64,000 nt of DNA, taken from positions 1,111,950 to 1,175,949 of the forward strand of contig JAPZUA010000001.1 of assembly GCA_027532905.1 (NCBI GenBank), in the 5' to 3' direction. Positions 18,635-53,376 of the stretch are shown one piece after another. Position 1 is the stretch's first letter; the number at the start of each line of letters is the position of its first letter. Source of the stretch: Magnetospirillum sp. GTDB lineage: Bacteria; Pseudomonadota; Alphaproteobacteria; CACIAM-22H2. Position numbers and translations under genes: made by a program. Under the pieces are notes generated by a model. That model worked only from the letters and a program-made list of their open reading frames with translations, did not search any database and had not been told where the DNA came from.

Positions 18635-18673
18635 GTGTACCAAAAATCACTCTAGTGTCCAATTTTGGAACAC
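18635..18673. promoter_or_regulatory. Inverted motif pair GTGTACCAAAAA...TTTTGGAACAC (copy A of a 47-bp repeat)
   Basis: GTGTACCAAAAA lies at 18635-18646 and TTTTGGAACAC at 18663-18673. The pair is upstream of the 3HCDH gene. Confidence 0.5.
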
Positions 18674-18850
18674 TACATACTTGGATACTCAGTGATTATC
18701 TTCATGATCGAAGCCATTTCCAGGCATCGCCAGCATGCACACCCTCGCTTGTTCGCCGTAGGCGCCCATAGGACAGTCTGAGCAGTTTGCGAACCGGAGT
18801 GCTTTCGGCTCATCGTCATCGTGAATGGGACGAGGATGAGACCGATGTAA

Positions 18851-19093
18851 CAGACCCCGCCGAACGACACAGCCCAGCGCGACGAGCTGCTCGATGGCGA
18901 GATCTTCTACAGCCAGGCCGAAGCCAAAGTGCTGATCGAGGGTTGGGGGCGGCACTACAGCACGATCCGCCCGCACAGCAGCCTTGGCCATCAACCGCCA
19001 GCCCCGGAAACCGCAACGCCACCATCGCCGCCTTCCGGTTCCGCTTCGCTCCACCTACTGCCGGCAATGGTGAAGGAGGCCACAATGCACTAA
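18851..19093 (+). pseudogene. IS3-family transposase (OrfB integrase core) C-terminal remnant
   Basis: The translation ...NDTAQRDELLDGEIFYSQAEAKVLIEGWGRHYSTIRPHSSLGHQPPAPE matches the conserved IS3-family OrfB tail. It is truncated by an in-frame TAA at 18848 and has no N-terminal part. Confidence 0.7.
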
Positions 19094-19132
19094 CAGTTTA
19101 TCCGGACCACTCGATGGGGGGCGACCGCCATA

Positions 19133-19171
19133 GTGTACCAAAATTTGTCCTAGAGTCTATTTTTGGAACAC
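19133..19171. promoter_or_regulatory. Inverted motif pair GTGTACCAAAAT...TTTTTGGAACAC (copy B of a 47-bp repeat)
   Basis: The 47-bp block is about 85% identical to copy A at 18635-18680. It lies upstream of the 19232 gene. Confidence 0.5.
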
Positions 19172-19231
19172 ACTACATTCGTTCTCTTAGACGTTTTTTT
19201 ATCAGCGGTTCCGCGATTGGATGCCTCGCAG

Positions 19232-20221
19232 ATGCACACGCTCACCTTAAGCCTCGCTTGCGGCGACTATGACCGCACTCGTGCAGTATTTGATGGCCGT
19301 GCTCCCATCGATGGCTGCACAATCATCCCGCTCGCAATGCCGCCCGAAGAAGCGTTTCCGCGGGCACTGCGGCATCAGTCCTTCGATATCAGCGAACTAT
19401 CGATGGCGAGCCATATGACCCAAGTTGACCGGGGCACGAACGCCTACATTGCGGTGCCGGTCTTCCCGTCGCGTTTGTTCCGCCACTCCTCGATCTACGT
19501 GCGGCGCGATCGGGGGATCGCACACCCCTCTGATCTCAAGGGCCGCCTCGTAGGCGTGCCAGAGTACCAGATTACAGCAGCCGTCTGGGTGCGTGGCATT
19601 CTTCAGGATGAGTACGGCGTCCTACCTGCCGATTTGCGTTGGCGTACGGGAGGGGTCGAACAGGCAGGGCGAACGCCGAGCGTCACACTAAAGCTCCCAG
19701 GAAACGTCGATGTATCAGCCATTCCAGATCACGATACGCTGTCGGCCCAACTGGATCGGGGCGATATCGACGCGCTTGTATCTGCGATGCCGCCCTCGTG
19801 CATGAAGACAAATCGTGAGGTTGGACGTCTCTTTCCGGACTACAAGGCCGTCGAGTCCGAATACTTCGCGAAGACCGGCATCTTCCCGACCATGCATTTG
19901 GTCGGGATTCGAAAGCGGCTGGTCGAGGAGCATCCATGGTTGCCCTTCAATGTGTATCGCGCATTTGCAAGAGCGAAAGAACTTTGCTACGCGCGGCTCG
20001 AAACGCTCGGACATCTCTATACGACCTTGCCTTGGCCGGTTGCTGAGCTTGAGCAAACACGTGCACTTCTCGGGCAAGATTTCTGGCGCTACGGCGTCGA
20101 CGAAAACCGAAAAGAGATCGACGCGCTGGCTAGATACCTCCATGAACAAGGCCTTACTGCGCGCCGCTTGACGGCAGAAGACGTGTTCCATCCGTCTACT
20201 TTTTCGATCCCAAAGCTCTGA
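19232..20221 (+). CDS. PhtD-like (4,5-dihydroxyphthalate decarboxylase family, NMT1/THI5-like fold) protein
   Basis: It is paralogous to 22590-23576 (shared LSCGDY, AVWVRGIL.DEYGV, GIFP.MHLV). The start is placed at an ATG at 19232. The stop overlaps the start of the Mo-subunit gene (TGATG). Confidence 0.65.
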   Translation: MHTLTLSLACGDYDRTRAVFDGRAPIDGCTIIPLAMPPEEAFPRALRHQSFDISELSMASHMTQVDRGTNAYIAVPVFPSRLFRHSSIYVRRDRGIAHPSDLKGRLVGVPEYQITAAVWVRGILQDEYGVLPADLRWRTGGVEQAGRTPSVTLKLPGNVDVSAIPDHDTLSAQLDRGDIDALVSAMPPSCMKTNREVGRLFPDYKAVESEYFAKTGIFPTMHLVGIRKRLVEEHPWLPFNVYRAFARAKELCYARLETLGHLYTTLPWPVAELEQTRALLGQDFWRYGVDENRKEIDALARYLHEQGLTARRLTAEDVFHPSTFSIPKL

Positions 20222-22572
20222 TGCCTAAGCTCGTCGGCCAGTCGGTTCCCCGAATCGAAGATCCGCCGCTTCTGCGCGGTACAGCCCGCTTCGTCGACGA
20301 CGTCAATCTTCCAGGGATGTTGGCAATTGCATTTGTGCGAAGCCCGCATTCGCATGCTTCGATCGGCCGTATCGACACGCAGGCGGCACGTGCTTTACCA
20401 GGCGTTCGTGCTGTCTTCACGATGGAAGACCTTCGGCACCACCTAACCGCGGACAGATTGGTCGTCGCCCTGCCGAGCGCGGCCTATCTGCTTGAGGTGC
20501 ATCGCCCAATTCTCGCCGACCGGGAAGTCGCCTATGTCGGCGAAGCAGTCGCCGTCGTCGTTGCGGAAAGCCGCAACGTCGCCGAGGACGCCGCAGCTCT
20601 GGTGGATATTGAATACGAACCGCTGGCAGCAGTAGCTGACTGCCGCGCTGCACTTCGCGAAAACGCACCGAGAGTGCATAGCGCACACCCCCACAATATT
20701 GCCGCCCGCTTTACTCTGGGGTTCGGCGACATCGACCGTGCATTCGAAGATGCCCACCATGTATTCAGCGAGTCTCTTTGGCAGCATCGTGGTGCAGCAC
20801 ATCCTCTCGAGTGTCGCGGGGTGGTCGCAATACACGACCCGCAGAGCGACGTCCTTACGGTCTGGTCGTCGACTCAAACGCCGCACACCGCACTCGCACA
20901 GATCTGCGATTTGCTCGGACGCACGGAAAATCAGGTGCGCGTGATTACCCCAGATGTCGGCGGCGGTTTCGGACCAAAGCTCGTTTTCTACCCTGAAGAC
21001 CTCATTGTGCCGCTAGTCGCACTTCGCCTCGCCGCGCCGGTGAAATGGATCGAAGACCGCCAGGAACATTTCATCGCAACGACACAAGAGCGCGACCAGT
21101 TTTGGGACGTGGAAATCGCGGTCACACGCGACGCACGAATACTCGGCGTACGCGGAAGGGTCGTCCATGACCACGGCGCCTATACGGCCCGCGGCTTGAC
21201 TGTTGTCCAGGGAGCAATGTCCGCGCTTCCTCTCGCGTACGATATTCCGGCATATCAGATCGAAGGTCTGGCAGTGCTTACGAATCTGGTTCCAGTCACG
21301 CCGGTGCGCGGGGCCGGCCAGCCGCAAGGCGTCTTTGCGATGGAACGATTGCTCGATCGGGTCGCAAATGAACTTGGACTTGATCGCATGGAAGTTCGTC
21401 GACGCAATCTCGTGCGTAGAGAACAGATGCCATTCACGAGGCCGTTTGCAACACGGGGCGGAATCCCAATTTCGCTTGATTCCGGCGACTACCCAGCCAC
21501 TATGTCGGCGGCGGCTGAAAAAGCCGACTGGGTCGGTTTCAAGGCGCGCCAAAAGCTGGCGTTGCAAGCCGGACGCCATATCGGCATTGGTCTTGCCAAC
21601 TATGTCGAGGGAACAGGGCGCGGCCCTTACGAGTCGGTTTCAGTGCGCATTGACCGCAGCGGGAAAGTTCTTGTCGCCACCGGTGCGGTAGCTATGGGTC
21701 AAAGCACCAAAACGATGCTGGCACAAATCGTCGCCGACGAACTCGGCGGCGACATGTCGAACATCATCGTCACTGCCGGCGACACAAGCGCCATCGCCCA
21801 AGGGTTCGGCGGGTTCAACAGTCGACAGGCTGTTACGGCAGGATCGTCGGCGCTCATCGCCGCCTGCAAGCTGCGGGATCGCATTTTGGACCTAACCGCC
21901 AAGGTTCTTGAAGTCGCGCGCAGCGACCTTGCGATCCAGGGGCGCACCGTCCGAATTGTGGGAACGGACCGAAGTTTGGATTTCGCTGATTTGGTCAAGA
22001 AGGTCGTTGGGCTGCCTGGATACCGCATGCTCGACGCGCACGGCCCGGAACTTGCCGTAACCGAGCACGTCCAGATCGATCCAATGGCCTACGCGAACGG
22101 ATGCGCTGTGGTTGAAGTCGAGGTCGACCCCGAAATCGGCCGTGTCGATATCCGGCGCGTCACCTTCGCGCACGACTGCGGGCGAATGATCAATCCAAAA
22201 ATCGTCGATGGACAGGTAATAGGCGGTATCGTGCACGGCATCGGCAATACCTTGTTCGAGTGGATGCGTTACGGTGCAGACGGCCAGCCACTCACGACCA
22301 CGCTTGCGGACTACATGCTGCCAACCGCAACCGAAATTCCGCCCATCGATCTTCTCCACCTAAGCAGCCCAACGCCGCTCAATCCGCTCGGCATTAAGGG
22401 TGTCGGCGAAGCCGGCGTCATTCCAATGAGCGCTGCCATCGTCGCCGCGATCGAAGATGCACTTTCCCCTTTGGGGGTACATCTTTCGGGCAGCCCGATA
22501 ACACCGAACAACCTCCTCGCTGCCATTCACGGTTCAGCGCAGAATTGGGATGCGGAGCCAGCGACGCAGTAG
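20221..22572 (+). CDS. Xanthine dehydrogenase-family molybdopterin-binding subunit (CoxL/aldehyde oxidase-like large subunit)
   Basis: The 783-aa product has the N-terminal a/b hammerhead motif and Mo-binding domains (VGGGFG, GxGQG, C-terminal AGE...GxxG). No FAD or FeS subunit genes are adjacent. Confidence 0.85.
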   Translation: MPKLVGQSVPRIEDPPLLRGTARFVDDVNLPGMLAIAFVRSPHSHASIGRIDTQAARALPGVRAVFTMEDLRHHLTADRLVVALPSAAYLLEVHRPILADREVAYVGEAVAVVVAESRNVAEDAAALVDIEYEPLAAVADCRAALRENAPRVHSAHPHNIAARFTLGFGDIDRAFEDAHHVFSESLWQHRGAAHPLECRGVVAIHDPQSDVLTVWSSTQTPHTALAQICDLLGRTENQVRVITPDVGGGFGPKLVFYPEDLIVPLVALRLAAPVKWIEDRQEHFIATTQERDQFWDVEIAVTRDARILGVRGRVVHDHGAYTARGLTVVQGAMSALPLAYDIPAYQIEGLAVLTNLVPVTPVRGAGQPQGVFAMERLLDRVANELGLDRMEVRRRNLVRREQMPFTRPFATRGGIPISLDSGDYPATMSAAAEKADWVGFKARQKLALQAGRHIGIGLANYVEGTGRGPYESVSVRIDRSGKVLVATGAVAMGQSTKTMLAQIVADELGGDMSNIIVTAGDTSAIAQGFGGFNSRQAVTAGSSALIAACKLRDRILDLTAKVLEVARSDLAIQGRTVRIVGTDRSLDFADLVKKVVGLPGYRMLDAHGPELAVTEHVQIDPMAYANGCAVVEVEVDPEIGRVDIRRVTFAHDCGRMINPKIVDGQVIGGIVHGIGNTLFEWMRYGADGQPLTTTLADYMLPTATEIPPIDLLHLSSPTPLNPLGIKGVGEAGVIPMSAAIVAAIEDALSPLGVHLSGSPITPNNLLAAIHGSAQNWDAEPATQ

Positions 22573-22589
22573 TTAGCGCGATGGATGAA

Positions 22590-23576
22590 TCAGAAGCCTT
22601 GCGTGCCGCGGAGAACTTCGCTGCTGATATTGAGCACTAAGTCGTCGATGGCAGGCTGCTCGCGGATCAGCCCCTGCTCCCAACAATAGCGGACAAGCGT
22701 CTTCAGGTTCTCGCGATTACGTGGCGTTAACCCGTACTCCCAAGGGTCCTGCCCCATCAGTTCCACTTGCTCTTCCCAGGCGCTCGTCCCCCAGGCTAGA
22801 GGCGCCACGCGTGGATTGCGAAAGCGCTCGTAACCCAGACGTTTGGACTCATTGAACGCAAAAGCAACGTTCGGCGCAATCCAGGGGTTCTTCTTGACCA
22901 AGTCCTCACGGATCAAGACCAAATGCATGATCGGAAAAATCCCAGTGCGTTTGAAATAGTCTTCTTCTGCGGATTTGAAGTCAGGGATCAAGCGCCGGAT
23001 GTTCTTGTTGCCGGCAAGAAACGAGGGCGGATAACCGGGCGAGATCAGAGCGTCGATCTCTCCGGTCACAAGCATTCGGTCCAAGGACCCCGGTGATGCA
23101 CGTTCGATCCGGAGCCCTGCCTGAGGCGTAAACGGAATGTCTTCGTCTCGGTCAGTGAGCCAAGTGATGTCCTGGTGCGGAACGCCGTACTCGTCGCCGA
23201 GAATACCGCGTACCCAGACCGCAGCGGCTGGTTGGAAGCCGCTCTCCACGCCAACTCTGCGCCCCGCCAATTCCGACGGCTTTTCGATTCCTTTGTTCGG
23301 ATTCACGAAAATGAAACCATGCCGAAAGCGGCGATGCGGAAATACAGGGAGCGCCACGTAGGGATGGCCCCTTTCACGGGCCATGAAGTAGGCGCACGCG
23401 TTCAACTCGCCAATATCGCATTCCGCATTTCGCGCCAGCCGCCATTGCCGATCCCGCGCGGTCGACGCCGCGAGCACCGTCAGATCCAAACCTTCCGGTC
23501 GAACGACACCGTCAATGAGCGGTCGCGTGATCTCGTAGTCGCCACAGCTCAAAGACACTTGAATGTTTTTCGGCAT
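22590..23576 (-). CDS. PhtD-like (4,5-dihydroxyphthalate decarboxylase family) protein, paralog 2
   Basis: Paralog of the 19232-20221 gene. Confidence 0.65.
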   Translation of the reverse strand: MPKNIQVSLSCGDYEITRPLIDGVVRPEGLDLTVLAASTARDRQWRLARNAECDIGELNACAYFMARERGHPYVALPVFPHRRFRHGFIFVNPNKGIEKPSELAGRRVGVESGFQPAAAVWVRGILGDEYGVPHQDITWLTDRDEDIPFTPQAGLRIERASPGSLDRMLVTGEIDALISPGYPPSFLAGNKNIRRLIPDFKSAEEDYFKRTGIFPIMHLVLIREDLVKKNPWIAPNVAFAFNESKRLGYERFRNPRVAPLAWGTSAWEEQVELMGQDPWEYGLTPRNRENLKTLVRYCWEQGLIREQPAIDDLVLNISSEVLRGTQGF

Positions 23577-23587
23577 CTGAATCCCGA

Positions 23588-24838
23588 CTAGATGGGGTTT
23601 TTTGTGACATTCCCGTCTTTATGCACATACCACCGTTCGCTTGTGATCGGCTTACCCGCCAATCTGGCGGCCATCCAATCCGCAATCAAAGTGGTCGGAT
23701 AGGGCCCGAGATTCGCAGACGGAACGAAGCCGACTGCATGGCGGGATTCCTGATAGACGACGAACTGACGGGGACACGTCATTGTTGCAAGCATTCGGTC
23801 CGCGTTTTCCAAGGGGCACAGCTCTTCATGTTCACCAGCCAGAGCGATATAAGGCACTCGGATTTTGTCTGCATACCCTTCCCACGTCAGGCTGCGTCGG
23901 AAATCATCGAATTTTGCCTCGTCTGTATAGCCCGAGATGTACATAAGCCGACGTTTGTAAGTCGGCGAAGCCGCTTCGACCATTGTCTTCTGCCCGGGCT
24001 CGAAGCAAATAGACGAGACGGCACATGCACGCAGACGCGGTTCGTTCGCCGTAACAGCCGTAACGATCAAGGAACCGAGACTGTTGCCGAATATCCCGAT
24101 TTTGTCTTTGTCGATCTCCGGTCTCGCAATCGCCCAATCGACAAGCTTCGGCGCCAGTTCAATGAAGCCTTGTAGCGAGAACTTGTGGCCAAGAATTCGC
24201 GACTCCGACTGTCCCGGACCATCGACCACAAGAACGGCCATACCACGCGAAAGCCAGCGATCGTTCGACAGCGACACGAATATCTCTTTGAATGTGTCCA
24301 ACCCCGGGAACGATACCACTAGCGGAATCTTGCCGCCGGTATATCCAGGCGGAAGGTGGAACCAAGCTGGTATTTTGCTTTGACCGAACGGGATCCAGAC
24401 TTCTTCGACCTTGTGATCGGCAAGGCGCGCGTAAGCCGTATAGCAGTCGCGTTTGTTCTTGTTGCAGTTCGCGTTGATCGCGTTGACTGTATTGTGCGGC
24501 CACTGCGCAGCACCCCATTGAATGGCAGCAATGAAATAGTTGTCGCGGGCGGTCACGAGATTGCCGGCGTCTTCGGCAGCGATCGCTTTGGCCTGGCGAC
24601 GGCGGGCCGCCGCCTCGAATGATGGTCCAATATCCGCAAACTTCTTTACGCCTTGGCGAATTGTCGCAAAGTCGGGATTTGATTCAATGCCGCAGGCTCC
24701 GTTAAAATAAAGCGATCGAGGTTGGTCCCAATCGATGCCGACGGATGCGATAACATTGTCTAAGAGCCAGCGTTGATCCACCCATCGGCGGGAGCTCGGC
24801 GCTTCGACATTTGGATCGATCTGAATTTCGTTCGACAT
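23588..24838 (-). CDS. Alpha/beta-fold hydrolase
   Basis: The nucleophile elbow GNSLGS is present, with an alpha/beta-hydrolase layout. It is possibly a C-C or C-N bond hydrolase of a ring-cleavage pathway. Confidence 0.6.
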   Translation of the reverse strand: MSNEIQIDPNVEAPSSRRWVDQRWLLDNVIASVGIDWDQPRSLYFNGACGIESNPDFATIRQGVKKFADIGPSFEAAARRRQAKAIAAEDAGNLVTARDNYFIAAIQWGAAQWPHNTVNAINANCNKNKRDCYTAYARLADHKVEEVWIPFGQSKIPAWFHLPPGYTGGKIPLVVSFPGLDTFKEIFVSLSNDRWLSRGMAVLVVDGPGQSESRILGHKFSLQGFIELAPKLVDWAIARPEIDKDKIGIFGNSLGSLIVTAVTANEPRLRACAVSSICFEPGQKTMVEAASPTYKRRLMYISGYTDEAKFDDFRRSLTWEGYADKIRVPYIALAGEHEELCPLENADRMLATMTCPRQFVVYQESRHAVGFVPSANLGPYPTTLIADWMAARLAGKPITSERWYVHKDGNVTKNPI

Positions 24839-24948
24839 AATTCACCTTCCTGATTGCTCAATCTGAGACTGAAGTCTGAGGCGAACCAACCACTGGCCGC
24901 CAAGCGGAGACTCCGCTCACGCTTTTCCATCGACGCTGACGAGAAGCC

Positions 24949-26907: not shown

Positions 26908-26998
26908 TGATGTCCACCGATAAGCCGAAAGCGGTCTACTTCATGCCGACTACTTAAGAATGGCCCCGCGAGCAAGTAGCGGGGCCATCGTCGTCAAC

Positions 26999-28015: not shown

Positions 28016-28104
28016 TTCCAATCCCCTCATTTGGACCCCTGCCGTCCGGATCGCTGCAGGCGTCGTTGATCGAGCATTCGCCTCATCTGTTTCATTTTAT
28101 GATA

Positions 28105-28122
28105 TCGTACCAAAAAAAGAAC
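28105..28122. promoter_or_regulatory. Motif half-site TCGTACCAAAAAAAGAAC
   Basis: It matches the GTGTACCAAAAA half of the recurrent motif. It sits in the divergent TAXI / alcohol dehydrogenase intergenic region. Confidence 0.35.
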
Positions 28123-30801: not shown

Positions 30802-31163
30802 ATTCGCCCTCCATCCCGGTTGTCCCAAAAGTGGGATTATTAATTATTAGATGACAGTATTAGCCTCAACGACGAATGTCAACGTGTCGGGAAGCAGATT
30901 GTACGCGAAACGGCTTCAAACAGATCGTCGAGATCGGCGACAGATCCGATTAGCTCGGTCAGCGGATCTATCCGCGAGAAGCGCGGGGCATCATCAAAGA
31001 ACGAAAGCACAGCAGCGCTTGTGGTGATTCGTCTACTTTTCGCGGCATCAGTTTCGATAGTTGTTTCTGAATTTTTATCGCGTCGATCAGGCGCACAATG
31101 CCGCTATGGGAGCTTGAACGGCTTTTCAGGCTTATTGGGATATGACTAGTATGATCTGTTCCG

Positions 31164-31175
31164 AATTTTGAACAC
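31164..31175 (+). promoter_or_regulatory. Motif AATTTTGAACAC
   Basis: A variant of the recurrent TTTTGGAACAC motif. It lies just upstream of the ribosome-binding site of the 31189 gene. Confidence 0.35.
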
Positions 31176-35657: not shown

Positions 35658-36002
35658 AGCATCCTCCTATTTCGGAGCCACATTCAGTGTCGGTGCGCTC
35701 GAACGGTGCCCGGCGGTTAACCCGCCACAATATGGAAATGGTTCATCTCCGGCTTTTCCTGACATGATTAGGCCAAATTGTTCCAAAGTTTGAACCCTCC
35801 TTGGCCATCAGGAAATGTCCGCTGTGCCTCACCCTTGCATTCGTTTGAGCTTGAAAAACAAGGAATCGGCAATGTGCTCCTCCAAATACCCTTCGAACGG
35901 CTGACCACAGAACGATAGCACATTCCCATTTTTTGTATTATTATTGATTTTGGTATGAATACGAGCGAAAACTAGTTTTTCCGTGAAGAGATTCAGCAGT
36001 AA

Positions 36003-38720: not shown

Positions 38721-39512
38721 TCAAGTGCCGTGCGAGACGTCGTCCTCGACGCGCTTCGGACGGCTTGGCGCCAAAACGCGCTTTCGCCGAACCGTGCTGT
38801 TTTCGTGTTTTCCCGCCGCTTCGTCCTCAAGTCTTGTAAGCAGCGCGATCGCGTAGCGCGCCGAACGCTCGACCATTGATTTGCAACGCTGAACGATATC
38901 ATCGACATCGCGGCGTATGGCCGCATCGACGACTCCTCGCATAATTGAAAGCGTTTCGCTCTCGCGTTCGGCTCCCGAAGCCTCTGCGGTTAACGCCCGC
39001 AAATAGTTTATTCGAGCGCGCAAGTTGCGAAGTATCGAACGGGCCACCTCGTTGTCGGCGCCACGCATCAAGATGTCGAAAAAACGATCAATCGACTGGA
39101 CGTAGTCAGTGACCGGCTTGCGATTGATATCCCGCTCGATCGCGTCGCACGCGAGTTTCAGCGCCTCGACGTCTTTTGCGCTTGCTCGCTGAACGAACAG
39201 GCCCGCCGACGCTGTCTCGAGGGCAAGTCGAACCTCGTATATTTGGCGAGCTTCCGACGGCGAAAGAGCAGCGACCATGAGTCCCCGACGCGGCCCACGT
39301 TCGACCAATCCTTCAGCCTCAAGCTGACGAAGCGCTTCTCGGATCGACGTCCTGCTGACGCCGGTTTCGACACACAGCATTCGCTCCGTGAGCTTTTGGC
39401 CCGGTTTGTAGTGGAGCCGCAGAATAGCGTTGCGGATCTTGACGGTGGCACGTTCCCGCAAATTGGGGGCATTTCGTCCAACCCGCAGCGATTGCTGTCC
39501 GCCACGCGCCAT
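38721..39512 (-). CDS. GntR-family transcriptional regulator (FadR/FCD subfamily)
   Basis: An N-terminal winged HTH (LTERMLCVETGVSRTSIREAL) is followed by an FCD domain. Confidence 0.8.
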   Translation of the reverse strand: MARGGQQSLRVGRNAPNLRERATVKIRNAILRLHYKPGQKLTERMLCVETGVSRTSIREALRQLEAEGLVERGPRRGLMVAALSPSEARQIYEVRLALETASAGLFVQRASAKDVEALKLACDAIERDINRKPVTDYVQSIDRFFDILMRGADNEVARSILRNLRARINYLRALTAEASGAERESETLSIMRGVVDAAIRRDVDDIVQRCKSMVERSARYAIALLTRLEDEAAGKHENSTVRRKRVLAPSRPKRVEDDVSHGT

Positions 39513-39595: not shown

Positions 39596-40201
39596 CTATC
39601 CTTGGCGGCGGCCGAATAGCCTCGAAACATAAGCCAATATCACCTTCCACAACAGTCTGCCTGCCGACAGGCTCTCTACCGGTGGCGGCGTTGATGGGGC
39701 GGATACCGAATTTGTCGCCGGGTCTTGTGTCGAAACCGGACTAGTGTTTTCGGCGTCGATCTGGTTCCGCAAACGGCCAGCGAACTCCGATGTAATCTGA
39801 TTGGCGAGTTCTTTTATAACACCGGAAGCTCGGCCATACTGAGCAACGGCTCCAGTTAGCGATAGGGTCGTCTTGATCGTGACAATCGAGCCCGATGGCG
39901 ACGGGTCTAGTCCAAACTGGATGTTAGCATTGGCCGCTCCGCGCCCCTTAGCATCGTTGCCGCGCGCGGTCGCCAAGGCTCGGTGGTTCACCGCATCCAT
40001 TTCAGTGAATTTTACGGTACCGGCGAAGTTCATTGTCACCGGGCCAAGGCGAACCGTAACCTTCCCTTTGAAGGTCTTATCGTCGACAATCTCGACCAGT
40101 TCTGCGCCCGGCATACACTTGACCATGTTCGGCACATCGAGCAACACAGCCCAAGCGCGGTCGGGAGGAAGCGGCACTTCAAACGAGTTTTCAAATTCCA
40201 T
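39596..40201 (-). CDS. CoxG-family SRPBCC protein (carbon monoxide dehydrogenase subunit G-like)
   Basis: The SRPBCC/CoxG fold. CoxG-like proteins usually accompany Mo-hydroxylases. Confidence 0.7.
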   Translation of the reverse strand: MEFENSFEVPLPPDRAWAVLLDVPNMVKCMPGAELVEIVDDKTFKGKVTVRLGPVTMNFAGTVKFTEMDAVNHRALATARGNDAKGRGAANANIQFGLDPSPSGSIVTIKTTLSLTGAVAQYGRASGVIKELANQITSEFAGRLRNQIDAENTSPVSTQDPATNSVSAPSTPPPVESLSAGRLLWKVILAYVSRLFGRRQG

Positions 40202-40391
40202 AACGCTTATCGGACCCCTTTGGCCTTTGCCTCAAATTCGCGACAGAGCGTCGCATCGACCACTTCACGCCTCGAAACATACCACCAATTCCAATTTCGG
40301 TACAGTTGGCAATTGACACAAATATGACTGCCTGTTATTGAATTTACGACATTTGAAATGCCTGCTGTATGCTGGAGTTGAGAAGAGAGAA

Positions 40392-44293: not shown

Positions 44294-44391
44294 TCGGACA
44301 CGTCCAAAGCTATGCAGGCGAAGTCAAACGGCACCGCGATGATTGATCACTGTCCGGAGCAGAAGCGTTCGCTCGGAAACGCGGGTGCGAA

Positions 44392-45252
44392 ATGAAACCG
44401 GCGCCATTCACGCATCACAACCCGAAGACCTTGGCCGAAGCGATTTCACTGCTTTCGGTCCTCGCGCCCGAGGACGGACGAATCATTGCTGGTGGTCAGA
44501 CTCTTGTCCCGATGATGGCGTTTCGCTTGGCCCGTCCCCGGCATGTCATCGACATCAATGGAATTACAGAGCTTGGGAAAATCACGATCGAGAACGGCAC
44601 AATGACGATCGGCGCCACCGTGCGCCACAATGCCTTTGAAAAGCCGTATCCCGGGAGCGGGAAGCTTGGAAGCCTTCTTGCGAACGTCGTGCAAAACATT
44701 GCGCATGCGCCCATTCGGTCCCGTGGCACTTTCTGCGGTAGCATTGCAAATTCGGACCCCGCGTCGGAATGGTGTCTCGTATCGACAACTGCTGGCGCGG
44801 AGATCGTATTGGCAAGCGTACGCGGCGAGCGAATCGTTCCAGCACATGATTTTTATACCGGCATAATGGCCAATGCGCTCGCAGAAGACGAAATTATCAC
44901 CAAGGTCCGTATCCCGCTTCTTTCGGACGATACGCGGTTTGGATTTCACGAGGTAAGCCGAAGAAAAGGCGATTTTGCAATGGCAGCTTGCCTCGCGATC
45001 TATCGTCTGTCGAACGGCAAAGCACTCGAACCAAGAATCGGACTTGGCGGTGTCCAAGCAATTCCGAAACGCGTCACCGCGGCCGAAGAAGCTCTTCGCG
45101 GCGGCGACATTGGGGGCGAGCTGTTCCGTCAAACCGCATCCGTCGCGATGCGCGCGATCGATCCGCTCGATGACGAGGAGTTTCCGGAGCAATATCGTCG
45201 GGAGCTGGCGCAGGCGGTGGTCGCGCGCGCATTGGAAAGCAGCGTCGCATGA
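44392..45252 (+). CDS. Mo-hydroxylase FAD-binding subunit (CoxM/XdhB-like), copy 1
   Basis: The FAD-binding-5 domain is present (AGGQTLVPMM, GT.GGS). Confidence 0.85.
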   Translation: MKPAPFTHHNPKTLAEAISLLSVLAPEDGRIIAGGQTLVPMMAFRLARPRHVIDINGITELGKITIENGTMTIGATVRHNAFEKPYPGSGKLGSLLANVVQNIAHAPIRSRGTFCGSIANSDPASEWCLVSTTAGAEIVLASVRGERIVPAHDFYTGIMANALAEDEIITKVRIPLLSDDTRFGFHEVSRRKGDFAMAACLAIYRLSNGKALEPRIGLGGVQAIPKRVTAAEEALRGGDIGGELFRQTASVAMRAIDPLDDEEFPEQYRRELAQAVVARALESSVA

Positions 45253-45737
45253 CAGACGAAGTGGATATCAGCCTATCCGTCAACGGACGGACCTATCGCT
45301 TTAAGGCGGAGCCCCGGCGAACCCTGGCGGACGCGCTGAGAGAAGATTGCGGACTGACCGGGACACATCTCGGCTGTGAACACGGCGTCTGCGGAACGTG
45401 CACCGTCAGCATGGACGGACAGCCAGTCCGCGCGTGTCTGATGTTTGCTGTCCAAGCGCAAGGGGCAAAGATCGTTACCGTCGAAGGCCTCGCATCGGGA
45501 TCGGAGCTGCATCCGCTTCAAAAGGCTTTCATCGAACATCACGCTCTTCAGTGCGGCTTTTGTACGCCTGGATTTCTGATGCTCGCATGGACCGAGCTCG
45601 CAAAGAATCCGAACCCAAGCGATGAAGAGCTGACTGACATTCTGTCGTCCAATCTATGTCGCTGCACAGGATACAAGAACATCTTTTCCGCGGTAAAAGC
45701 AGCGGCCAATGAAATGCGAAATGGAGCGCCAAAATGA
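45249..45737 (+). CDS. (2Fe-2S)-binding subunit (CoxS-like), copy 1
   Basis: Two [2Fe-2S] cysteine motifs are present (CEHGVCGTC and CGFCTPG). Confidence 0.9.
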   Translation: MTDEVDISLSVNGRTYRFKAEPRRTLADALREDCGLTGTHLGCEHGVCGTCTVSMDGQPVRACLMFAVQAQGAKIVTVEGLASGSELHPLQKAFIEHHALQCGFCTPGFLMLAWTELAKNPNPSDEELTDILSSNLCRCTGYKNIFSAVKAAANEMRNGAPK

Positions 45738-48088: not shown

Positions 48089-48960
48089 AAGCAGCTCCTT
48101 TTCAGTATCACGATCCCACCTCGATAGACGAGGCGATCGACCTACTTGGCAAACTGGAGAACGCAAAAGTTCTTGCCGGCGGCCAGTCGTTGATGGCGAT
48201 GCTCAACATGAGATACGCCCAACCCGATCACGTCGTGGACATCAATCGCATCGCAGATCTTTCGTATATTCGGGAAGCAAACGGCGCACTCGTTATCGGC
48301 GCCATGACCCGCCAGCGCGATCTGGAGTTTTCTGATCTCGTTCGCAGGACCTGTCCCATACTCCACGAAGCGATCCAGCATGTCGGCCACCGCCAGACGC
48401 GCAATCGCGGAACCGTCGGCGGATCGCTTTGCCACCTCGATCCGTCCGCCGAACTCGCAGCGATGGCTGCGCTGCACAACGCAACGCTGACAGTGGCAGG
48501 TCCAAAGGGCTCTCGGGAGCTTGCCTTCAAAGAGTTCGCGCTCGGCTTTATGACGCCGGCGCTGGAAGTCGACGAAATTCTGACGGCGATTCGGATCGAA
48601 TTCTGGCCTAAGGGCCACGGCTACGGGTTTCTCGAATTCGCCCGTCGGCACGGAGATTTCGCCGTCGCGTCGGCTGGGGCGCTGATCACGCTCGACGCAA
48701 AAGGCTTAATCGACCGGGCCAGCCTCGTGATTGGCGGCGTCGGCTCGGTACCTACGCGAGTAGAAAGCGCCGAGCAGATCTTGCTGGGCACGCAGCCGAC
48801 CCAGGCCGTTTTCGAGGAAGCTGCGCGCGCCTGCAAATCGATCGAAGCCCTCGACGATATCCATGCACCGGCCTCCTATCGATTGCATCTGGCGGAAACC
48901 CTGGCGCGACGAGCTCTTGCCAAAGCCCTCCTCAGCCTGAGATCGGACGGAGAACAATGA
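48085..48960 (+). CDS. Mo-hydroxylase FAD-binding subunit (CoxM-like), copy 2
   Basis: Paralog of 44392-45252 (AGGQSLMAML, GT.GGSL). Confidence 0.85.
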   Translation: MKAAPFQYHDPTSIDEAIDLLGKLENAKVLAGGQSLMAMLNMRYAQPDHVVDINRIADLSYIREANGALVIGAMTRQRDLEFSDLVRRTCPILHEAIQHVGHRQTRNRGTVGGSLCHLDPSAELAAMAALHNATLTVAGPKGSRELAFKEFALGFMTPALEVDEILTAIRIEFWPKGHGYGFLEFARRHGDFAVASAGALITLDAKGLIDRASLVIGGVGSVPTRVESAEQILLGTQPTQAVFEEAARACKSIEALDDIHAPASYRLHLAETLARRALAKALLSLRSDGEQ

Positions 48961-49445
48961 CGATGGATTCCCGCGACATTGTCGTTACGGTGAATGGCAT
49001 CCGCCACGAGGCAACGGTGAAAACGCGCGTCACCCTCGCGGACTTTCTGCGTCACCAACTCGAGCTTACGGGCACACATCTCGGATGCGAGCACGGCGTC
49101 TGCGGCGCATGCACCGTCCTTGTTGATGGCCGTACGGCACGCTCTTGTCTGATGCTGGCAGTTCAGGCGCACGGCCACGAAATCAGAACTGTCGAAGGTA
49201 TAGCTCCGAACGCAAAGGAACTGCATCCGCTGCAGACGGCTTTCCAGAAACATCATGGACTGCAATGCGGCTTCTGCACGCCCGGAATGCTGACGACTTT
49301 GATCGAGTTCCTCCACGACAATCCAGATCCGACGGAAGCCGAAGTAAGAATAGCGATATCCGGCAATCTCTGTCGCTGCACCGGCTATCAGGGAATCGTC
49401 GATGCCGCCCTCGATGCCGCAAAAACAATGCGCAACAGCACATGA
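48957..49445 (+). CDS. (2Fe-2S)-binding subunit (CoxS-like), copy 2
   Basis: Paralog of 45249-45737 (CEHGVCGAC and CGFCTPG). Confidence 0.9.
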   Translation: MTMDSRDIVVTVNGIRHEATVKTRVTLADFLRHQLELTGTHLGCEHGVCGACTVLVDGRTARSCLMLAVQAHGHEIRTVEGIAPNAKELHPLQTAFQKHHGLQCGFCTPGMLTTLIEFLHDNPDPTEAEVRIAISGNLCRCTGYQGIVDAALDAAKTMRNST

Positions 49446-49461
49446 GTACGCCGTGCAAGAT

Positions 49462-49641
49462 ATGACCGAAAAGTCGCTTCAGGATATGGCGGAAGCCGCC
49501 GGACTGGGATTGGCGTTCCAGTTGTTTCCCGAGGACATTCGAGCGGCTGTGAAGCAAGTCGCAAATCAGCGCGCCGCACTTCGGGACGATATCTCGGCGG
49601 CGGAGGAGCCATGGCCTCCCATGACTATTCCCGGGAAATGA
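49462..49641 (+). CDS. AtzG-like (DUF4089-type) small protein, putative amidase small subunit
   Basis: A 59-aa helical peptide. Its stop overlaps the start of the amidase-signature gene (ATGA). Its size and position resemble the AtzG partner of AtzE-type amidases. Confidence 0.45.
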   Translation: MTEKSLQDMAEAAGLGLAFQLFPEDIRAAVKQVANQRAALRDDISAAEEPWPPMTIPGK

Positions 49642-51026
49642 GCGAAGAACTGCACTGGCTTGGAATTGCCGAATTGCACGCGGCTTTCGGGGCGCGCAGA
49701 ACCTCGCCGGTCGAAGTGGTCGAGGCCTTGTTGCGGCGCATCGAGCGCCTTGACGAAAAACTTCACGTATTCGTGACGCTGGATGCCGAGAACGCCCGCA
49801 AAGCCGCGCGCGCCGCGGAGCAGGATATCGAGGCGGGAAGACACAAAGGACCGCTGCACGGCATCCCGATTGCGATCAAGGATGTTATCGATGCTGCAGG
49901 CCTTCCGACGACGTGCCAATCGAAGATCTTCGAAGGCAACATACCGTCTGACGACGCGACGTCGGTCGCCCAGTTGCGTCGAGCCGGCGCCATCGTCCTC
50001 GGAAAGGTCGCGACCTACGAGTTCGCCCTAGGCGGGCCGAGTTTCGACCTTCCCTATCCACCGGCACGGAATCCGTGGCATGTCGATCACAGTACTGGGG
50101 GGTCCTCCTCAGGTTCGGGCGTTGGTTTGGCAGCCGGTCTCTTTCCCGGCGCGCTTGGCACCGACACCGCCGGCTCCGTCCGCAATCCGGCCAGCGCTTG
50201 CGGGATCGTTGGCCTAAAACCGACCTACGGCCGCGTTTCGCGTCAAGGCGTGTTCCCGCTGGCTTTTACGATGGATCATGTCGGCCCGATGGCACGGCGC
50301 GTCGCCGACATTGAACACCTGCTTGCCGCCATGGCCGATCGCAACGCCCCTTATATCGACGCCGCGACAGACGCTGCTGTGCCGCACAGACCCGCCGATC
50401 TTCGTGGAAAGCGCATCGGGTTCGTTCGGCATTTTCACGAGCGCGACATGCCGGCAGACAATGAAGTCGCGGCCGCTCTTGAGTTGGCGGCGCGGGTCTT
50501 CGAAGAGGCCGGTGCCGAAATAGTTAACGTATCGCTTCCGCCGCTCGACGCCTTCGCCGCCGTCAACCGCATCATTCTGCAGGCGGAGGCCTGGGCGGTG
50601 CATGCGAGTTGGCTTCGGACGCGCCCTCAAGACTACGCGAAGCTCACGCGCCAGCGTCTTCTCGGCGGGGCATTCCTGAGCGCGGAGGATTACGTTCAGG
50701 CGCAGCGGAGACGGCGGCGCATGATTGCGGCAATGGAAGATGTATTTCGGGACGTCGATTTGCTCTTATGTGCGAGTGCCATGGATCCGCCGTGCCGGAT
50801 TGACGATGCGGAAGCTGTTGCACGGACCTACCCACGTCAGGCGCGCACGCCGTTCAGCGTGACGGGGCATCCAGCTCTCGCGATGATGTCCGGGCTCTCT
50901 TCGGCTTCATTGCCGCTGTCTTTGCAGCTTGCAGGGCGCTATTGGGACGAAGCCAGCGTGCTGTCGGCAGCCGCTGTGTTCGAGCGCGAAACCCAGTTCT
51001 ACCGGCATCGCCCGACGCTTGAATAA
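49638..51026 (+). CDS. Amidase-signature family amidase (AtzE/GatA-like)
   Basis: A GGSSSGS-containing amidase signature, a Lys-cisSer-Ser catalytic-region pattern, and the motif GIPIAIKD. Confidence 0.85.
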   Translation: MSEELHWLGIAELHAAFGARRTSPVEVVEALLRRIERLDEKLHVFVTLDAENARKAARAAEQDIEAGRHKGPLHGIPIAIKDVIDAAGLPTTCQSKIFEGNIPSDDATSVAQLRRAGAIVLGKVATYEFALGGPSFDLPYPPARNPWHVDHSTGGSSSGSGVGLAAGLFPGALGTDTAGSVRNPASACGIVGLKPTYGRVSRQGVFPLAFTMDHVGPMARRVADIEHLLAAMADRNAPYIDAATDAAVPHRPADLRGKRIGFVRHFHERDMPADNEVAAALELAARVFEEAGAEIVNVSLPPLDAFAAVNRIILQAEAWAVHASWLRTRPQDYAKLTRQRLLGGAFLSAEDYVQAQRRRRRMIAAMEDVFRDVDLLLCASAMDPPCRIDDAEAVARTYPRQARTPFSVTGHPALAMMSGLSSASLPLSLQLAGRYWDEASVLSAAAVFERETQFYRHRPTLE

Positions 51027-51132
51027 CCGATAGAACTAAGGTCAACGCCCCTTTTTCTTCGGGGCAAGACGGCGTATCGCAGACGGCTCGATCGCAATCG
51101 GGCCGTCTGCGACGCCGCATTCGCCAAGCCGA

Positions 51133-52158
51133 TCAGTCCGCGTATCCGTAGTACCACTTGCGCAGATCGCGATACGTGATCGGCTTGTATTTCGGCGGAT
51201 TGTTCGGCCCCTGGCATGTCGGCAGAACTTCGATCAAGGCATCCGCGTTCGGTCCGAAGAACACTGGAATCGAATAACGATCGACGGTGTTCGTATTGAT
51301 AACCCGATGTTTCGTCGACAGATACTGATCGTTCGTCCATCGAACAATCAAATTTCCCGTATTGATGAGTAGCGTTCCGGGGATCGCCTCTACCGCCCGC
51401 CAATGGCCGGACGGCATGCGTACTGCGAGTCCCGACTCGCTGGCCGTCAGGAGCGTCATCATCGAATTGTCGGTATGTGGCGCAATGCCGTACTGGCGGT
51501 CGCCGATCGTTTTCTGCGGCGGATAATGCAGCAGCGACAGGTTGACATGCGGCACCTCGAAGAATTTGTCGAAGTAATCCAAGGGCAGATTCAATGTCGT
51601 CGCCCAAAGCGGCAAGAACTGCTTGCCAAGTTTTTCGGCCGCCGCTTGGTACTTCACTACGACCTCTTTGAACCCGGGCAGATTCTCCGGCCAGACGTTC
51701 CGCTCGACCTTTGGATCGGTTTCCCGGATGACTGTGAACTTGGAATAAAGATTCGTCTTCGCATCTTTGATGATGTTGACGTTCGCTCTGTTGGAGCGTT
51801 CCTCGCCGCCTCCTTGATAGCCGGTCTTGTGGCTATCGACGTCGATGTAGGGCACCCGGTCCTTCACTTCGGACGGAAGCGAATGGAAGCGCTTCGACTG
51901 CTCGAAAACCTGTTTGATGAGTTCTTCGGGGATGCTGTGTCCCTTGAGATAAAAGAAGCCGACGGTTTCGGTGATTTCTTTCAACTGCGCGGCGACGCGT
52001 TCGCGCCCACCCGGCTCGCCTTTCAGATAAGGCGACATATCGAGCGTCGGAATCTCCTCGTCGGAGTCCGGGTAGTCCATGAGCCTGAGCTCTTCTTCCT
52101 CGGTGAATTTCGGCATCGATGCAGTCGAACTGGTGGGCGCCGTTTGAACTATCGACAT
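51133..52158 (-). CDS. Isopenicillin N synthase-like 2OG-Fe(II) oxygenase family protein
   Basis: The DIOX_N/2OG-FeII_Oxy pattern is present (HTDNS...H). An ATG at 52158 has an AGGAGA ribosome-binding site. Confidence 0.7.
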   Translation of the reverse strand: MSIVQTAPTSSTASMPKFTEEEELRLMDYPDSDEEIPTLDMSPYLKGEPGGRERVAAQLKEITETVGFFYLKGHSIPEELIKQVFEQSKRFHSLPSEVKDRVPYIDVDSHKTGYQGGGEERSNRANVNIIKDAKTNLYSKFTVIRETDPKVERNVWPENLPGFKEVVVKYQAAAEKLGKQFLPLWATTLNLPLDYFDKFFEVPHVNLSLLHYPPQKTIGDRQYGIAPHTDNSMMTLLTASESGLAVRMPSGHWRAVEAIPGTLLINTGNLIVRWTNDQYLSTKHRVINTNTVDRYSIPVFFGPNADALIEVLPTCQGPNNPPKYKPITYRDLRKWYYGYAD

Positions 52159-52310
52159 TTGCTTTCTCCTTCCCTGATTGGACCAATCATATCCTGATTG
52201 TTTTTGGCATACCATCATACAAATATGCCTTCTTAAGCGTCTGTATTACCGAATATTTCTCCGAATTAGCTTTTCTGGTTTTTTCGTTAGCCGAGATACA
52301 TCGGCCGGAC

Positions 52311-53210
52311 TTAGCTGCCGGCAATCGTTCCGGGCGGCAGCGAGCGGGCATATGCTGCGATCTCGCCCGGTCGTGTGAACCAAACTTTGTCGCGCAGTTT
52401 ATGGTTCACGATGTATTGCAGCGCTTTGCGAAGCTGAGCGTAACGAAAGGGCTGTCCAACGACGAAAGTGTGCAGCGAAATGCCGCAGACCAAGGGTGCC
52501 CGCTCCGAGAATTCAAGCATCGTGTCGAATTGATCGATGATCATTTGGCTGAAATCGGTCGCCGACTGCATCCGGCTCAGCATCGTCGGGCTGTCGTTGA
52601 TTTCGATAGGATAGGGCACGGACAGAATAGGTCCTGAGCGTGTCCGCATCCAAAACGGCTGATCGTCGGCGGGCCAATCCAGCAAATAGCTGTAGCCGGC
52701 TTCCTTGAGCAGATCCGGCGTAACGGCGGTTTCGGATATCCATGGCCCCATCCAACCTTCGGGCCGCACGCCGTGACCCGCCGCCAGCTTGTCGGTTGCT
52801 TCGCGAATGAGACGCGCCTCGCTCGGCTCGTCCAGATCGCCCTGGCGCTCAGAGTTTGTGCGTCCATGCCCGACAATTTCATCCGCCCGCGCCTTGATCC
52901 GCGCCACGATTTGCGGGCAGCGGTCGTAGACTGCGGAGTTGATCAAGTGGGACAACGGCAGTCCCAAAGAGTCAGCCAAATCGAAGATACGCCAGATTCC
53001 GACGCGCAAGCCGTAGTCGCGCCAAGCATAGTTGCGCGGGTCCGGTGGGGGTCCGAGCGAGGTCGGCGTATGCCCCATCGTGCCGCCGAAAGCGAAGTCC
53101 TCGACATTGAGCGCCAGGTAAAAAGCCAATCGTTTGCCGCCCGGCCAGTCGAAATCGGGCCGCTCAAAGATCGGCGAATACTCGAATCGGCCATGGTGCG
53201 GCAACGTCAT
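52311..53210 (-). CDS. Polysaccharide-deacetylase-like (PuuE-type) hydrolase family protein
   Basis: NodB-like fold motifs. The product has the size and N-terminus of the PuuE/allantoinase-like subgroup. Confidence 0.55.
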   Translation of the reverse strand: MTLPHHGRFEYSPIFERPDFDWPGGKRLAFYLALNVEDFAFGGTMGHTPTSLGPPPDPRNYAWRDYGLRVGIWRIFDLADSLGLPLSHLINSAVYDRCPQIVARIKARADEIVGHGRTNSERQGDLDEPSEARLIREATDKLAAGHGVRPEGWMGPWISETAVTPDLLKEAGYSYLLDWPADDQPFWMRTRSGPILSVPYPIEINDSPTMLSRMQSATDFSQMIIDQFDTMLEFSERAPLVCGISLHTFVVGQPFRYAQLRKALQYIVNHKLRDKVWFTRPGEIAAYARSLPPGTIAGS

Positions 53211-53363
53211 CGGGCGCCCCTCGCTCCAGTACCTTCAAACATTCGCATTTGCCCCTTACCGAGCGCTTCGAGCGCCTTGATGTACCAAATTTGCTACATT
53301 TTTGAAATTCCGGCAAGCCATATAAATCGAGGTTCTGTGAGCTGATTTAACCCCCATCATAAA

Positions 53364-53376
53364 GTGTTCCATTTTT
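53364..53376 (-). promoter_or_regulatory. Motif AAAAATGGAACAC (minus-strand orientation)
   Basis: The plus strand reads GTGTTCCATTTTT. It sits in the divergent deacetylase / TcuA-like intergenic region. Confidence 0.4.

Follow-up and report, generated by a model that had tools for sequence, protein, structure and literature searches.

A recurrent palindromic element at the promoters of a Magnetospirillum catabolic cluster and an XRE-family protein as its candidate regulator

Introduction

Do the short inverted motifs that recur upstream of the operons of a bacterial catabolic cluster form the binding sites of a regulator, and if so, of which one? The question is raised by a 64,000-nucleotide stretch of Magnetospirillum sp. 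(GenBank assembly GCA_027532905.1, contig JAPZUA010000001.1, positions 1,111,950 to 1,175,949), hereafter called the window, in which a catabolic cluster occupies 14-57 kb (14269-56980). Two regulator genes lie inside the cluster, encoding a GntR/FCD protein (38721-39512) and an XRE-family protein (56072-56980), and a LuxR-type gene (60024-60821) lies just beyond it. An earlier note on this DNA had proposed that the motif is an operator for one of these three regulators and that it defines a regulon of about 35 kb. The distribution of the sites, their phylogenetic footprints and their conservation across genomes support the reading as a protein-binding operator and the extent of the regulon, and very probably the motif is a genuine conserved cis-regulatory site. 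Of the three regulators, comparative genomics singled out the XRE protein and not the GntR or LuxR protein; judged from sequence comparison, we put the probability that it is the motif-binding protein at roughly 0.65 to 0.7.

Two forms of one motif

The motif, TTTTGGAAC/GTWCCAAAA, takes two forms in the window. The compact form is a 16-bp palindrome, GTWC-N8-GWAC, with an A/T-rich centre, and the composite form is YGTnCnAAAA-N16/17-TTTTnGnACR, 36-37 bp long. A logo of 31 distinct sites reads YGTnCnAAAAWTGGAAAAA ... TTGATTTTnGnACR. Its strongest positions show dyad symmetry, with GT, C and AAAA mirrored by TTTT, G and AC, and the inner part of the composite is asymmetric and includes TTGATT. 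The composite reads naturally as two 16-bp sites set 20-21 bp apart, centre to centre (about two helical turns), with strong outer and weak inner halves. In locus L085, the left site of the composite is a perfect GTTCATAAATTGGAAC.

For comparison with other genomes, we searched the GTDB species genomes with an alignment of the XRE protein, which gave 359 homologues, and fetched 80 loci, almost all from Alphaproteobacteria. Leaving aside L013, a Telmatospirillum metagenome-assembled genome (99% identical), these are the 79 foreign loci referred to below, in which the element was found by a palindrome scan and an iterated two-block matrix. A search with the PhtD-like protein of the cluster led to further contigs at 76-99% identity.

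When different spacers between the arms were tested in the 79 foreign loci and the centre had to be A/T-rich, enrichment was found only at 8, 26 and 27 bp. With up to one mismatch, a spacer of 8 gave 91 matches, against 26, 12, 36 and 6 for spacers of 6, 7, 9 and 10. A variant palindrome with each arm one base longer, TGTCACGAAAATTGT...ACAATTTTCGGACA, occurs in a Beijerinckiaceae group (L019 8367-8403, L021 8364-8400 and L036 8265-8301; arms of the form TGTCACGAAAAT...ATTTTCGGACA), where it is placed between the Mo-hydroxylase and XRE genes. It may be a co-evolved operator variant.

Sites in the window

The putative sites are the following.

18636-18672, minus strand: composite operator A, 37 bp, minus-strand reading TGTTCCAAAATTGGACACTAGAGTGATTTTTGGTACA
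19134-19170, minus strand: composite operator B, 37 bp, top-scoring site of the window
28107-28122, no strand assigned: compact operator GTACCAAAAAAAGAAC, exact GTWC-N8-GWAC
30821-30856, plus strand: tentative weak composite-like site TGTCCCAAAAGTGGGATTATTAATTATTAGATGACA, 14.3 bits (left block 14.1)
31158-31173, no strand assigned: compact operator GTTCCGAATTTTGAAC, exact palindrome, matched by the left-block matrix on both strands (16.1 and 12.3 bits)
35780-35795, no strand assigned: compact operator GTTCCAAAGTTTGAAC, exact palindrome
35925-35957, plus strand: tentative pair of arm-like half-sites, CCCATTTTTTGTATT ... TGATTTTGGTATG, in direct orientation, 20 bp apart
40287-40304, minus strand: half-composite operator TGTACCGAAATTGGAAT, left block 21.4 bits, second in the window
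53282-53297, no strand assigned: compact operator GTACCAAATTTGCTAC, one arm mismatch, conserved island in the alignment with Tagaea (L014)
53366-53381, no strand assigned: compact operator GTTCCATTTTTCGTAC, exact palindrome

A and B have the same exact arms, GTGTACCAAAA (18635-45 in A, 19133-43 in B) and TTTTGGAACAC (18663-73 and 19161-71), on either side of a 17-bp spacer, and the full motifs that the earlier note had placed at these two pairs are thus present to the letter. A lies 63 bp upstream of the start of a 3-hydroxyacyl-CoA-dehydrogenase-like gene (3HCDH; 18573) and heads a 3HCDH-TauD-MFS-isochorismatase operon, and B lies 62 bp upstream of a PhtD-like start codon (19232) and heads PhtD-like and Mo-hydroxylase genes. 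An inverted pair about 28 bp apart had been described as frequent; we found it at these two places, 18.6 and 19.1 kb, only.

At the other sites, the compact definition GTWC-N8-GWAC explains what initially resembled half-sites with two mismatches. The signal at 28107-22 is there, as an exact 16-bp palindrome rather than a half-site; it is flanked by the minus-strand gene of a TAXI binding protein (start 28030) and the plus-strand gene of a Zn-dehydrogenase (start 28165). Likewise, the signals reported at 31164-75 and 53364-76 are real but make up only half of the exact palindromes at 31158-73 and 53366-81. The former palindrome lies 16 bp upstream of an epimerase start codon (31189). The latter heads the TcuA-TcuB-XRE operon, about 82-97 bp before the codon (about 53463) at which TcuA probably starts, an arrangement that would make the XRE gene autoregulated. 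One proposed site did not survive: the sequence at 40392-405 (AAAAATTGGAACAC) has two mismatches, lacks a partner arm and scored with none of the matrices. A better site, 40287-40304, lies about 100 bp from it in the same intergenic region, between CoxG/GntR and ABC permease genes (minus strand, TGTACCGAAATTGGA; 86-103 bp upstream of the CoxG start at 40201).

Four sites are additional to those of the earlier note. The palindrome at 35780-95 lies between TauD-like/Mo-hydroxylase genes (minus strand) and CoA-ligase/Zn-reductase genes (plus strand), and the half-site pair at 35925-57 lies 46-78 bp upstream of the CoA-ligase start codon; there the right-block matrix gave the best score of the window (15.9 bits) and the left-block matrix gave 13.3 bits on the minus strand. 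The site at 30821-56 lies 20-55 bp upstream of a family-5 solute-binding protein gene (likely start codon 30801), and its score is third in the window, at about the 95th percentile of the shuffle maxima given below. The fourth, 53282-97, is on the deacetylase-like side of the deacetylase-like/TcuA intergenic region. At least one site was found in each of the six divergent intergenic regions between 17 and 56 kb (18.6-19.2, 28.0-28.2, 30.8-31.2, 35.7-36.0, 40.2-40.6 and 53.2-53.5 kb). We discounted a match at 57950-64 (14.1 bits, upstream of a glyoxalase gene), which is less conserved than its flanks in Tagaea, and an unsupported right-block match at 9717-29.

Enrichment of the motif and confinement to promoters

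The 11-mer with at most one mismatch occurred four times in the window, against 0.68 expected. The exact palindrome GTWC-N8-GWAC occurred five times, four of them in intergenic DNA, which makes up 10-15% of the window. The wider form, GTWC-N27-GWAC, matched non-coding DNA at A and B only, and other spacings gave 0-2 non-coding matches. A composite matrix built from 28 foreign sites only ranked B and A first in the window, at 29.7 and 26.8 bits, and the maxima of 200 shuffles had a mean of 3.4, a 95th percentile of 14.5 and a maximum of 25.4 bits. The foreign left-block matrix (at least 12 bits) gave 12 matches in the window, all of them intergenic, against 1.96 per shuffle. In the reverse direction, an arm matrix made from the window-family sites alone matched the foreign loci 113 times at 14 bits or more (25.8 expected); these matches fell in 53 of the 79 loci, against 21 expected, and some of them are coding look-alikes.

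Among such look-alikes are single-arm matches such as TGTTCCAAAAATGTTACGAT, which in about 10 loci lie inside a conserved coding sequence (...IVTFLEQK...) and were rejected. The perfect arm-like string TGTTCCAAAAATGTTAC, inside the same conserved coding sequence (which is on the reverse strand), is a recurrent false positive in motif scans (L060 12936, L061 6667, L062 6503, L064 13106, L065 6508, L069 7320, L077 13115, L078 6595, L081 6502 and L084 13050).

Orthologous promoters at 76-92% identity have kept the sites and have diverged in their flanks. A single copy of the element, with invariant arms but a different spacer and flanks, stands between the divergent 3HCDH and PhtD-like genes of L003 and L005, which are 108-170 bp apart. 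In the orthologous TAXI/dehydrogenase intergenic region of L213, no island is better conserved than the 28107 site (TTATGATATCGTrCCAAAAAnnGAACGCAA). In Tagaea sp. (L014), conserved islands mark both sites of the deacetylase-like/TcuA region, 53282 as TGTrCCAAwTTTGCTACATT and 53366 as GTTCCAATTTTCGTAC, which is again an exact palindrome, and in L043 and L045 a composite element precedes the orthologous CoA-ligase operon.

The history of A and B bears on whether the motif is simply a repeat. Two decayed features lie between them.

18736-18790, plus strand: decayed 5' end of a second PhtD-like gene (ATGCACACCCTCGCTT...), which can be aligned with the true PhtD-like start (19232) and its counterparts in L003 and L005
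18830-19092, plus strand: remnant of the C-terminus of an IS3-family transposase (translation ...GEIFYSQAEAKVLIEGWGRHYSTIRPHSSLGHQPPAPE), which separates A and B

The decayed PhtD-like end lies 63 bp from A, and its alignment shows A and B to be two paralogous versions of a single divergent promoter region. The IS3 remnant, an 85% DNA match to an annotated IS3 transposase of a Sphingomonas plasmid, is not present in the orthologous loci L003 and L005, and this fragment was the sole match in a search for near-identical annotated plasmid DNA. B is identical in two 99%-identical metagenome contigs (L001 and L002). In the same contigs (L001 1-70, L002 1-60, compared with window 18600-18660), the left half of A and its 3HCDH side are swapped for unrelated sequence; the junction falls within the element, which marks the region as a rearrangement hot spot.

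A repeat of the repetitive extragenic palindromic or miniature transposable element type, a duplication generated by an insertion sequence, or a composition artefact could in principle produce such a motif with no regulatory role. It would fit this view that A and B flank the IS3 remnant, that an A/T-rich motif stands in DNA with a GC content of 57% for the genome, and that loose versions arise by chance in A/T-rich metagenome contigs (115 of 120 among the matches listed). These last came from scanning metagenomes for the element's inner part, the left arm not being required; the scan returned at least 120 matches, mostly chance ones from A/T-rich, short contigs. Yet the left arm was complete in all five listed matches from contigs of at least 64% GC, against 1 of the 115 others. 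Moreover, the arms of A and B are identical, yet 9 of the 17 spacer bases differ and each has its own flank; the two are thus old paralogous promoter regions joined by a rearrangement mediated by the insertion sequence, and no fresh duplication. Sites stand at orthologous positions in other genera, and all matrix matches lie in promoter regions. The earlier note had named a composition artefact or a repeat as what would undo its proposal; what we found were matches that within the window are confined to promoter regions, arms conserved while spacers and flanks diverge, and the same element at syntenic positions in dozens of other genera. We consider an origin of this kind very improbable.

Overlap with predicted promoters

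If the motif is an operator, its position relative to the promoter should indicate how it acts. In about 25 loci, a conserved TAGnnT/TTAGnT box follows the composite at 8-10 nt. Together with the TTGATT inside the composite, this box would place the composite at roughly -56 to -21 of an outward-reading sigma-70-type promoter. At A, a consensus scan called TGGACA-16-TACACT within the element on the 3HCDH (minus) strand. At 28107, 31158 and 53366, a TATGAT or CATAAA box stands 2-3 nt upstream of the palindrome (TATGAT at 3 nt for the 28107 site and at 2 nt for the 31158 site). Since a -10-like box lies just upstream of them, these three compact sites would cover the presumed transcription start. 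The overlap of the sites with predicted core promoter boxes suggests promoter occlusion, that is, repression. Should the XRE protein bind the motif, we lean toward its acting as a repressor.

The same boxes raise the possibility that the motif is itself a promoter element, for example with GGAAC as the -35 box of an extracytoplasmic function (ECF) sigma factor or the A/T tract as an UP element, which would recur through a shared promoter type. GGAAC resembles ECF -35 boxes, and the composite has a -35-like TTGATT, A-tracts and a fixed orientation to the downstream genes. However, the most conserved positions are dyad-symmetric, unlike those of promoters, and the compact sites are true palindromes with a -10-like box just upstream at three of them. 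Furthermore, there is no conserved CGT-type -10 box 16-17 nt after GGAAC and no sigma factor gene within the window. This explanation appears improbable to us.

An inverted repeat can also work in RNA, as a hairpin of the 5' leader (an attenuator, a terminator or the target of a small RNA). The arms are able to pair, a weak terminator-like hairpin was called at 18675-18653, and the L064 site folds at z = -4.3. Against this, the remaining folds are weak (z from +0.7 to -1.5), the left GTAC and right GAAC of A and B give an A-A clash, and the variable arm base shows no covariation. The predicted -10 boxes put the composite upstream of the transcription start, and no Rfam match reached the gathering threshold between 18 and 54 kb. 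A function in RNA therefore strikes us as highly implausible.

Several other known site types were tried and rejected. A sigma-54 reading of TGGAAC/TGGCAC has the wrong GG-to-GC spacing in every copy, an ECF sigma reading of GGAAC has no CGT box at the right distance, and IHF sites matched only partially. CRP/FNR/NtcA-type sites are GT-N10-AC, and the motif is GT-N12-AC.

Linkage of the element to the XRE gene

Which protein, then, would bind an operator of this kind? The candidate is encoded at the far end of the cluster.

56072-56980, plus strand: candidate cognate regulator gene, 302 residues, with an XRE/Cro-CI-type helix-turn-helix at about residues 7-67

A composite of at least 30 bits was found in 30 of the 79 foreign loci, in every case sharing its strand with the XRE gene and lying no more than about 4.5 kb from it. 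The element starts at most about 150 bp 3' of the XRE stop codon in 16 loci, heads a CoxG-TctC-XRE operon in 6, and lies about 3.3 kb downstream of the XRE gene in 6 (before a PyrC-like gene in at least four: L060, L064, L076 and L077). Compact sites recur in the divergent promoters of operons of alcohol dehydrogenase (ADH) and XRE genes (L015, L018, L026 and L033) and of CoxM-CoxS-XRE operons (L060, L064, L084 and L085), and in L091 a compact site stands 20 bp upstream of the XRE gene. The more distant PhtD-like loci L011 and L012 have XRE homologues that are 62-66% identical. In the one long enough metagenome contig (L127), an XRE homologue ends about 150 bp upstream of the element.

A further case is the betaproteobacterial Alicycliphilus plasmid pDP3, which carries an XRE homologue (59% identical) and GTACCAAAAA-type sites upstream of its CoxG and amidase-XRE units. 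Its cluster is compact (L214 1931-13854), in the order CoxG, adenylate-forming enzyme, PaaI thioesterase, quinone-oxidoreductase-like protein, deacetylase, XdhC, amidase and regulator, with divergent Mo-hydroxylase genes adjoining.

The GntR/FCD or LuxR-type protein could bind the operator in place of the XRE protein. The GntR gene has a central position in the cluster and immediately follows CoxG, upstream of which the 40287-40304 site is found. GntR-family operators are generically GT...AC palindromes, and GTWC-N8-GWAC ends in GT and AC. FadR-type sites, however, are shorter, with few bases between GT and AC. GntR-like open reading frames were found in only 2 of the 79 foreign loci, at 30% identity, and a LuxR gene in the near-identical Tagaea locus only, while pDP3 has the motif and the XRE gene with no GntR or LuxR gene in the 19 kb inspected. 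We consider binding by either of these proteins unlikely.

Several observations weigh against binding and repression by the XRE protein. In the window, its gene is 37 kb from A and B, and no element follows its stop codon. A strong composite is present in just 30 of the 79 XRE loci, and the closest homologues (66-78% identity) mostly have compact or variant sites only. Among the listed metagenome matches, which are mostly short contigs, an XRE gene stands beside the element in one of the four testable contigs. Because the XRE gene belongs to a conserved cluster, its co-occurrence with the element may partly be synteny. Regarding repression, the promoter boxes are consensus-level predictions, and no plus-direction promoter was found at B.

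The XRE protein and its relatives

The helix-turn-helix of the XRE protein is matched by Pfam HTH_31 (2.5e-12) and HTH_3 (1.1e-11) and by no other Pfam families. Among PDB sequences it matches HipB, the 434 repressor and SinR, and Foldseek gave target-normalised template modelling (TM) scores of 0.7-0.78 to the DNA-binding domains of SinR and C.AhdI. Over residues 1-101, which include it, most positions are invariant or reach at least 90% conservation in a set of homologues with overall identities of 62-99%. The rest of the protein (residues 70-302, about 230 residues) had no match in Pfam (E up to 10), in NCBIfam or among PDB sequences.

An AlphaFold model made from 45 homologues has medium confidence (predicted local distance difference test, pLDDT, 69; predicted TM score 0.60). 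For the C-terminal part of this medium-confidence model, the best Foldseek matches in the PDB were FAM83 DUF1669, Nuc, Zucchini and TrmBL2 (E from 3e-4 to 5e-3, target TM 0.45-0.57), which tentatively suggests a phospholipase-D-like fold. Catalytic phospholipase-D-like members carry HxK(x)4D, and the HxK motif was not seen in the XRE protein sequence.

The protein family has 3,547 database members at E of at most 1e-10, all named just "XRE family" or "helix-turn-helix" regulator, and tblastn placed homologues below 60% identity on 73 plasmids, 53 of them from Klebsiella. Literature searches on the motif strings and on XRE regulators of such clusters returned nothing relevant, with incomplete coverage, so that novelty is unproven. 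One could speculate that the protein is the founder of an uncharacterised family of one-component regulators, with a non-catalytic, possibly phospholipase-D-like sensor and a tandem two-dimer operator, and the master switch of a genetically undescribed breakdown of N-heterocyclic carboxylic acids by Mo-hydroxylases, a CoA ligase, a reductase, amidases that open the ring, and tricarballylate dehydrogenase. We hold this broader picture to be possible but doubtful; in it, the family would have thousands of members in Alpha-, Beta- and Gammaproteobacteria, some of them plasmid-borne.

Known systems resemble parts of the proposed pair. SinR of Bacillus subtilis (PDB 3qq6 and 3zkc) is among the best sequence and fold matches of the helix-turn-helix. 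It recognises a GTTC-containing unit (GTTCTYT), copies of which lie over promoters as tandem or inverted repeats, and it acts as a tetrameric repressor. The GTWCnAAA units in their compact and two-turn-spaced arrangements resemble this layout, with a putatively similar half-site. In contrast to the XRE protein, whose C-terminal domain of about 230 residues belongs to no sequence family, SinR has 111 residues, a small helical oligomerisation domain, and control by an antagonist protein and not a ligand.

Repressors of the phage 434/lambda cI type have an XRE-type helix-turn-helix like that of the window protein. Their operators are palindromes of 14-17 bp per dimer that overlap the -35 and -10 boxes, with neighbouring operators occupied cooperatively. 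The two-site composite shares this logic of adjacent operators. Unlike in 434/cI, we are dealing with a chromosomal metabolic regulon and a protein with no peptidase S24 domain, and the operator has degenerate inner half-sites and a spacing of 20-21 bp fixed across genera.

BzdR/BoxR of Azoarcus have a similar layout of about 300 residues, with an N-terminal XRE helix-turn-helix and a C-terminal effector domain. BzdR is a benzoyl-CoA-responsive repressor whose shikimate-kinase-like C-terminal domain is a non-catalytic relative of an enzyme fold. It controls an aromatic-acid pathway that starts with a CoA ligase, through several operator regions over one promoter, and its operators consist of TGCA repeats rather than GTWC...GWAC. 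With the NCBIfam model of the BzdR type, the window protein aligned over its helix-turn-helix only and scored 26 bits, where the cutoff is 204. Its C-terminal domain is unrelated to that of BzdR: it had no shikimate-kinase (SKI) match in Pfam or NCBIfam, and its modelled fold is weakly phospholipase-D-like.

The archaeal TrmB/TrmBL2 proteins come in through the C-terminal domain, TrmBL2 being among its fold matches. If the fold is true, both would combine a DNA-binding domain with a non-catalytic phospholipase-D-like domain. TrmB, however, has a winged helix in place of the XRE helix-turn-helix. A query TM of about 0.3, on a model of pLDDT 69, makes the fold match a weak one, and there is no sequence relationship.

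Proposed mechanism

From sequence alone, we infer binding by the XRE protein, its oligomeric state, repression and the nature of the inducer as follows. A helix-turn-helix dimer would bind the 16-bp palindrome GTWCnAAA/TTTnGWAC, and at the main promoters two sites on the same helix face would be bound cooperatively by two dimers or a tetramer. The composite would cover the -35 box and the spacer, or the -35 and -10 boxes, and the compact sites would cover the transcription start. The protein would be released when a substrate or intermediate of the pathway binds its C-terminal domain. In this way, it may co-ordinate about 12 transcription units over 35 kb, namely those for Mo-hydroxylases, PhtD-like decarboxylases, the CoA ligase and reductase, amidases, transporters, TcuAB and the XRE protein itself.

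We did not find this regulator-operator pair described in the literature; it would be a conventional kind of bacterial regulation and would introduce no new principle. Its value is practical. An anonymous "XRE family regulator", for which we found no characterised example among more than 3,500 database homologues, becomes one half of a testable regulator-operator pair, with a consensus, an architecture and a predicted regulon of about 12 transcription units, for linked genes whose pathway is otherwise guessed. Since such a regulon ties pathway genes together, the motif could help to mark out the extent of the pathway in hundreds of Alphaproteobacteria from soil and peat. The pair is also a candidate inducible promoter and repressor, and a candidate biosensor for N-heterocyclic acids.

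The catabolic cluster

Annotated with Pfam and NCBIfam, the cluster encodes three Mo-hydroxylase large subunits, two CoxM/CoxS sets, two PhtD-like proteins, the 3HCDH gene, two TauD-like proteins, one 2-oxoglutarate oxygenase, a CoA ligase and Zn-reductase, an amidase, a PuuE-like deacetylase, TcuA/TcuB, and TAXI-TRAP and ABC transporters. Together with that of pDP3, this gene set presumably fits the pathway of Mycobacterium INA1 from isonicotinate via citrazinate and citrazyl-CoA to tricarballylate. To our knowledge, that pathway is known only biochemically, from Mycobacterium INA1, and literature searches on isonicotinate genetics and on strain DP3 returned nothing relevant.

The two PhtD-like paralogues (19232-20221 and 22590-23576) bear the JGI name 4,5-dihydroxyphthalate decarboxylase. 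They had no Pfam match at E of at most 1e-5 and have a faint similarity to SsuA/PhnD-type binding proteins, and their 5,797 homologues (E of at most 1e-20) are always found beside Mo-hydroxylases.

A tRNA-Ala(GGC) gene (8514-8589) marks the exact point at which the GC content falls, from about 66% in 1-8 kb to about 57% in the remainder of the window, which suggests that the catabolic cluster may be a genomic island inserted beside this tRNA. A second copy of the 3' end of this tRNA was not found in the window.

The operon that follows the element in many related loci has genes for homologues of pyrimidine biosynthesis enzymes, among them DHODB-type Fe-S/PyrD-like proteins, a PyrC-like dihydroorotase and sometimes a phosphoribosyltransferase. 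Such operons are found at L012 2866-6502 and L092 10972-13878, and just after the element in L060, L064, L077 and L085. These homologues have apparently been recruited for the reductive opening of heterocyclic rings.

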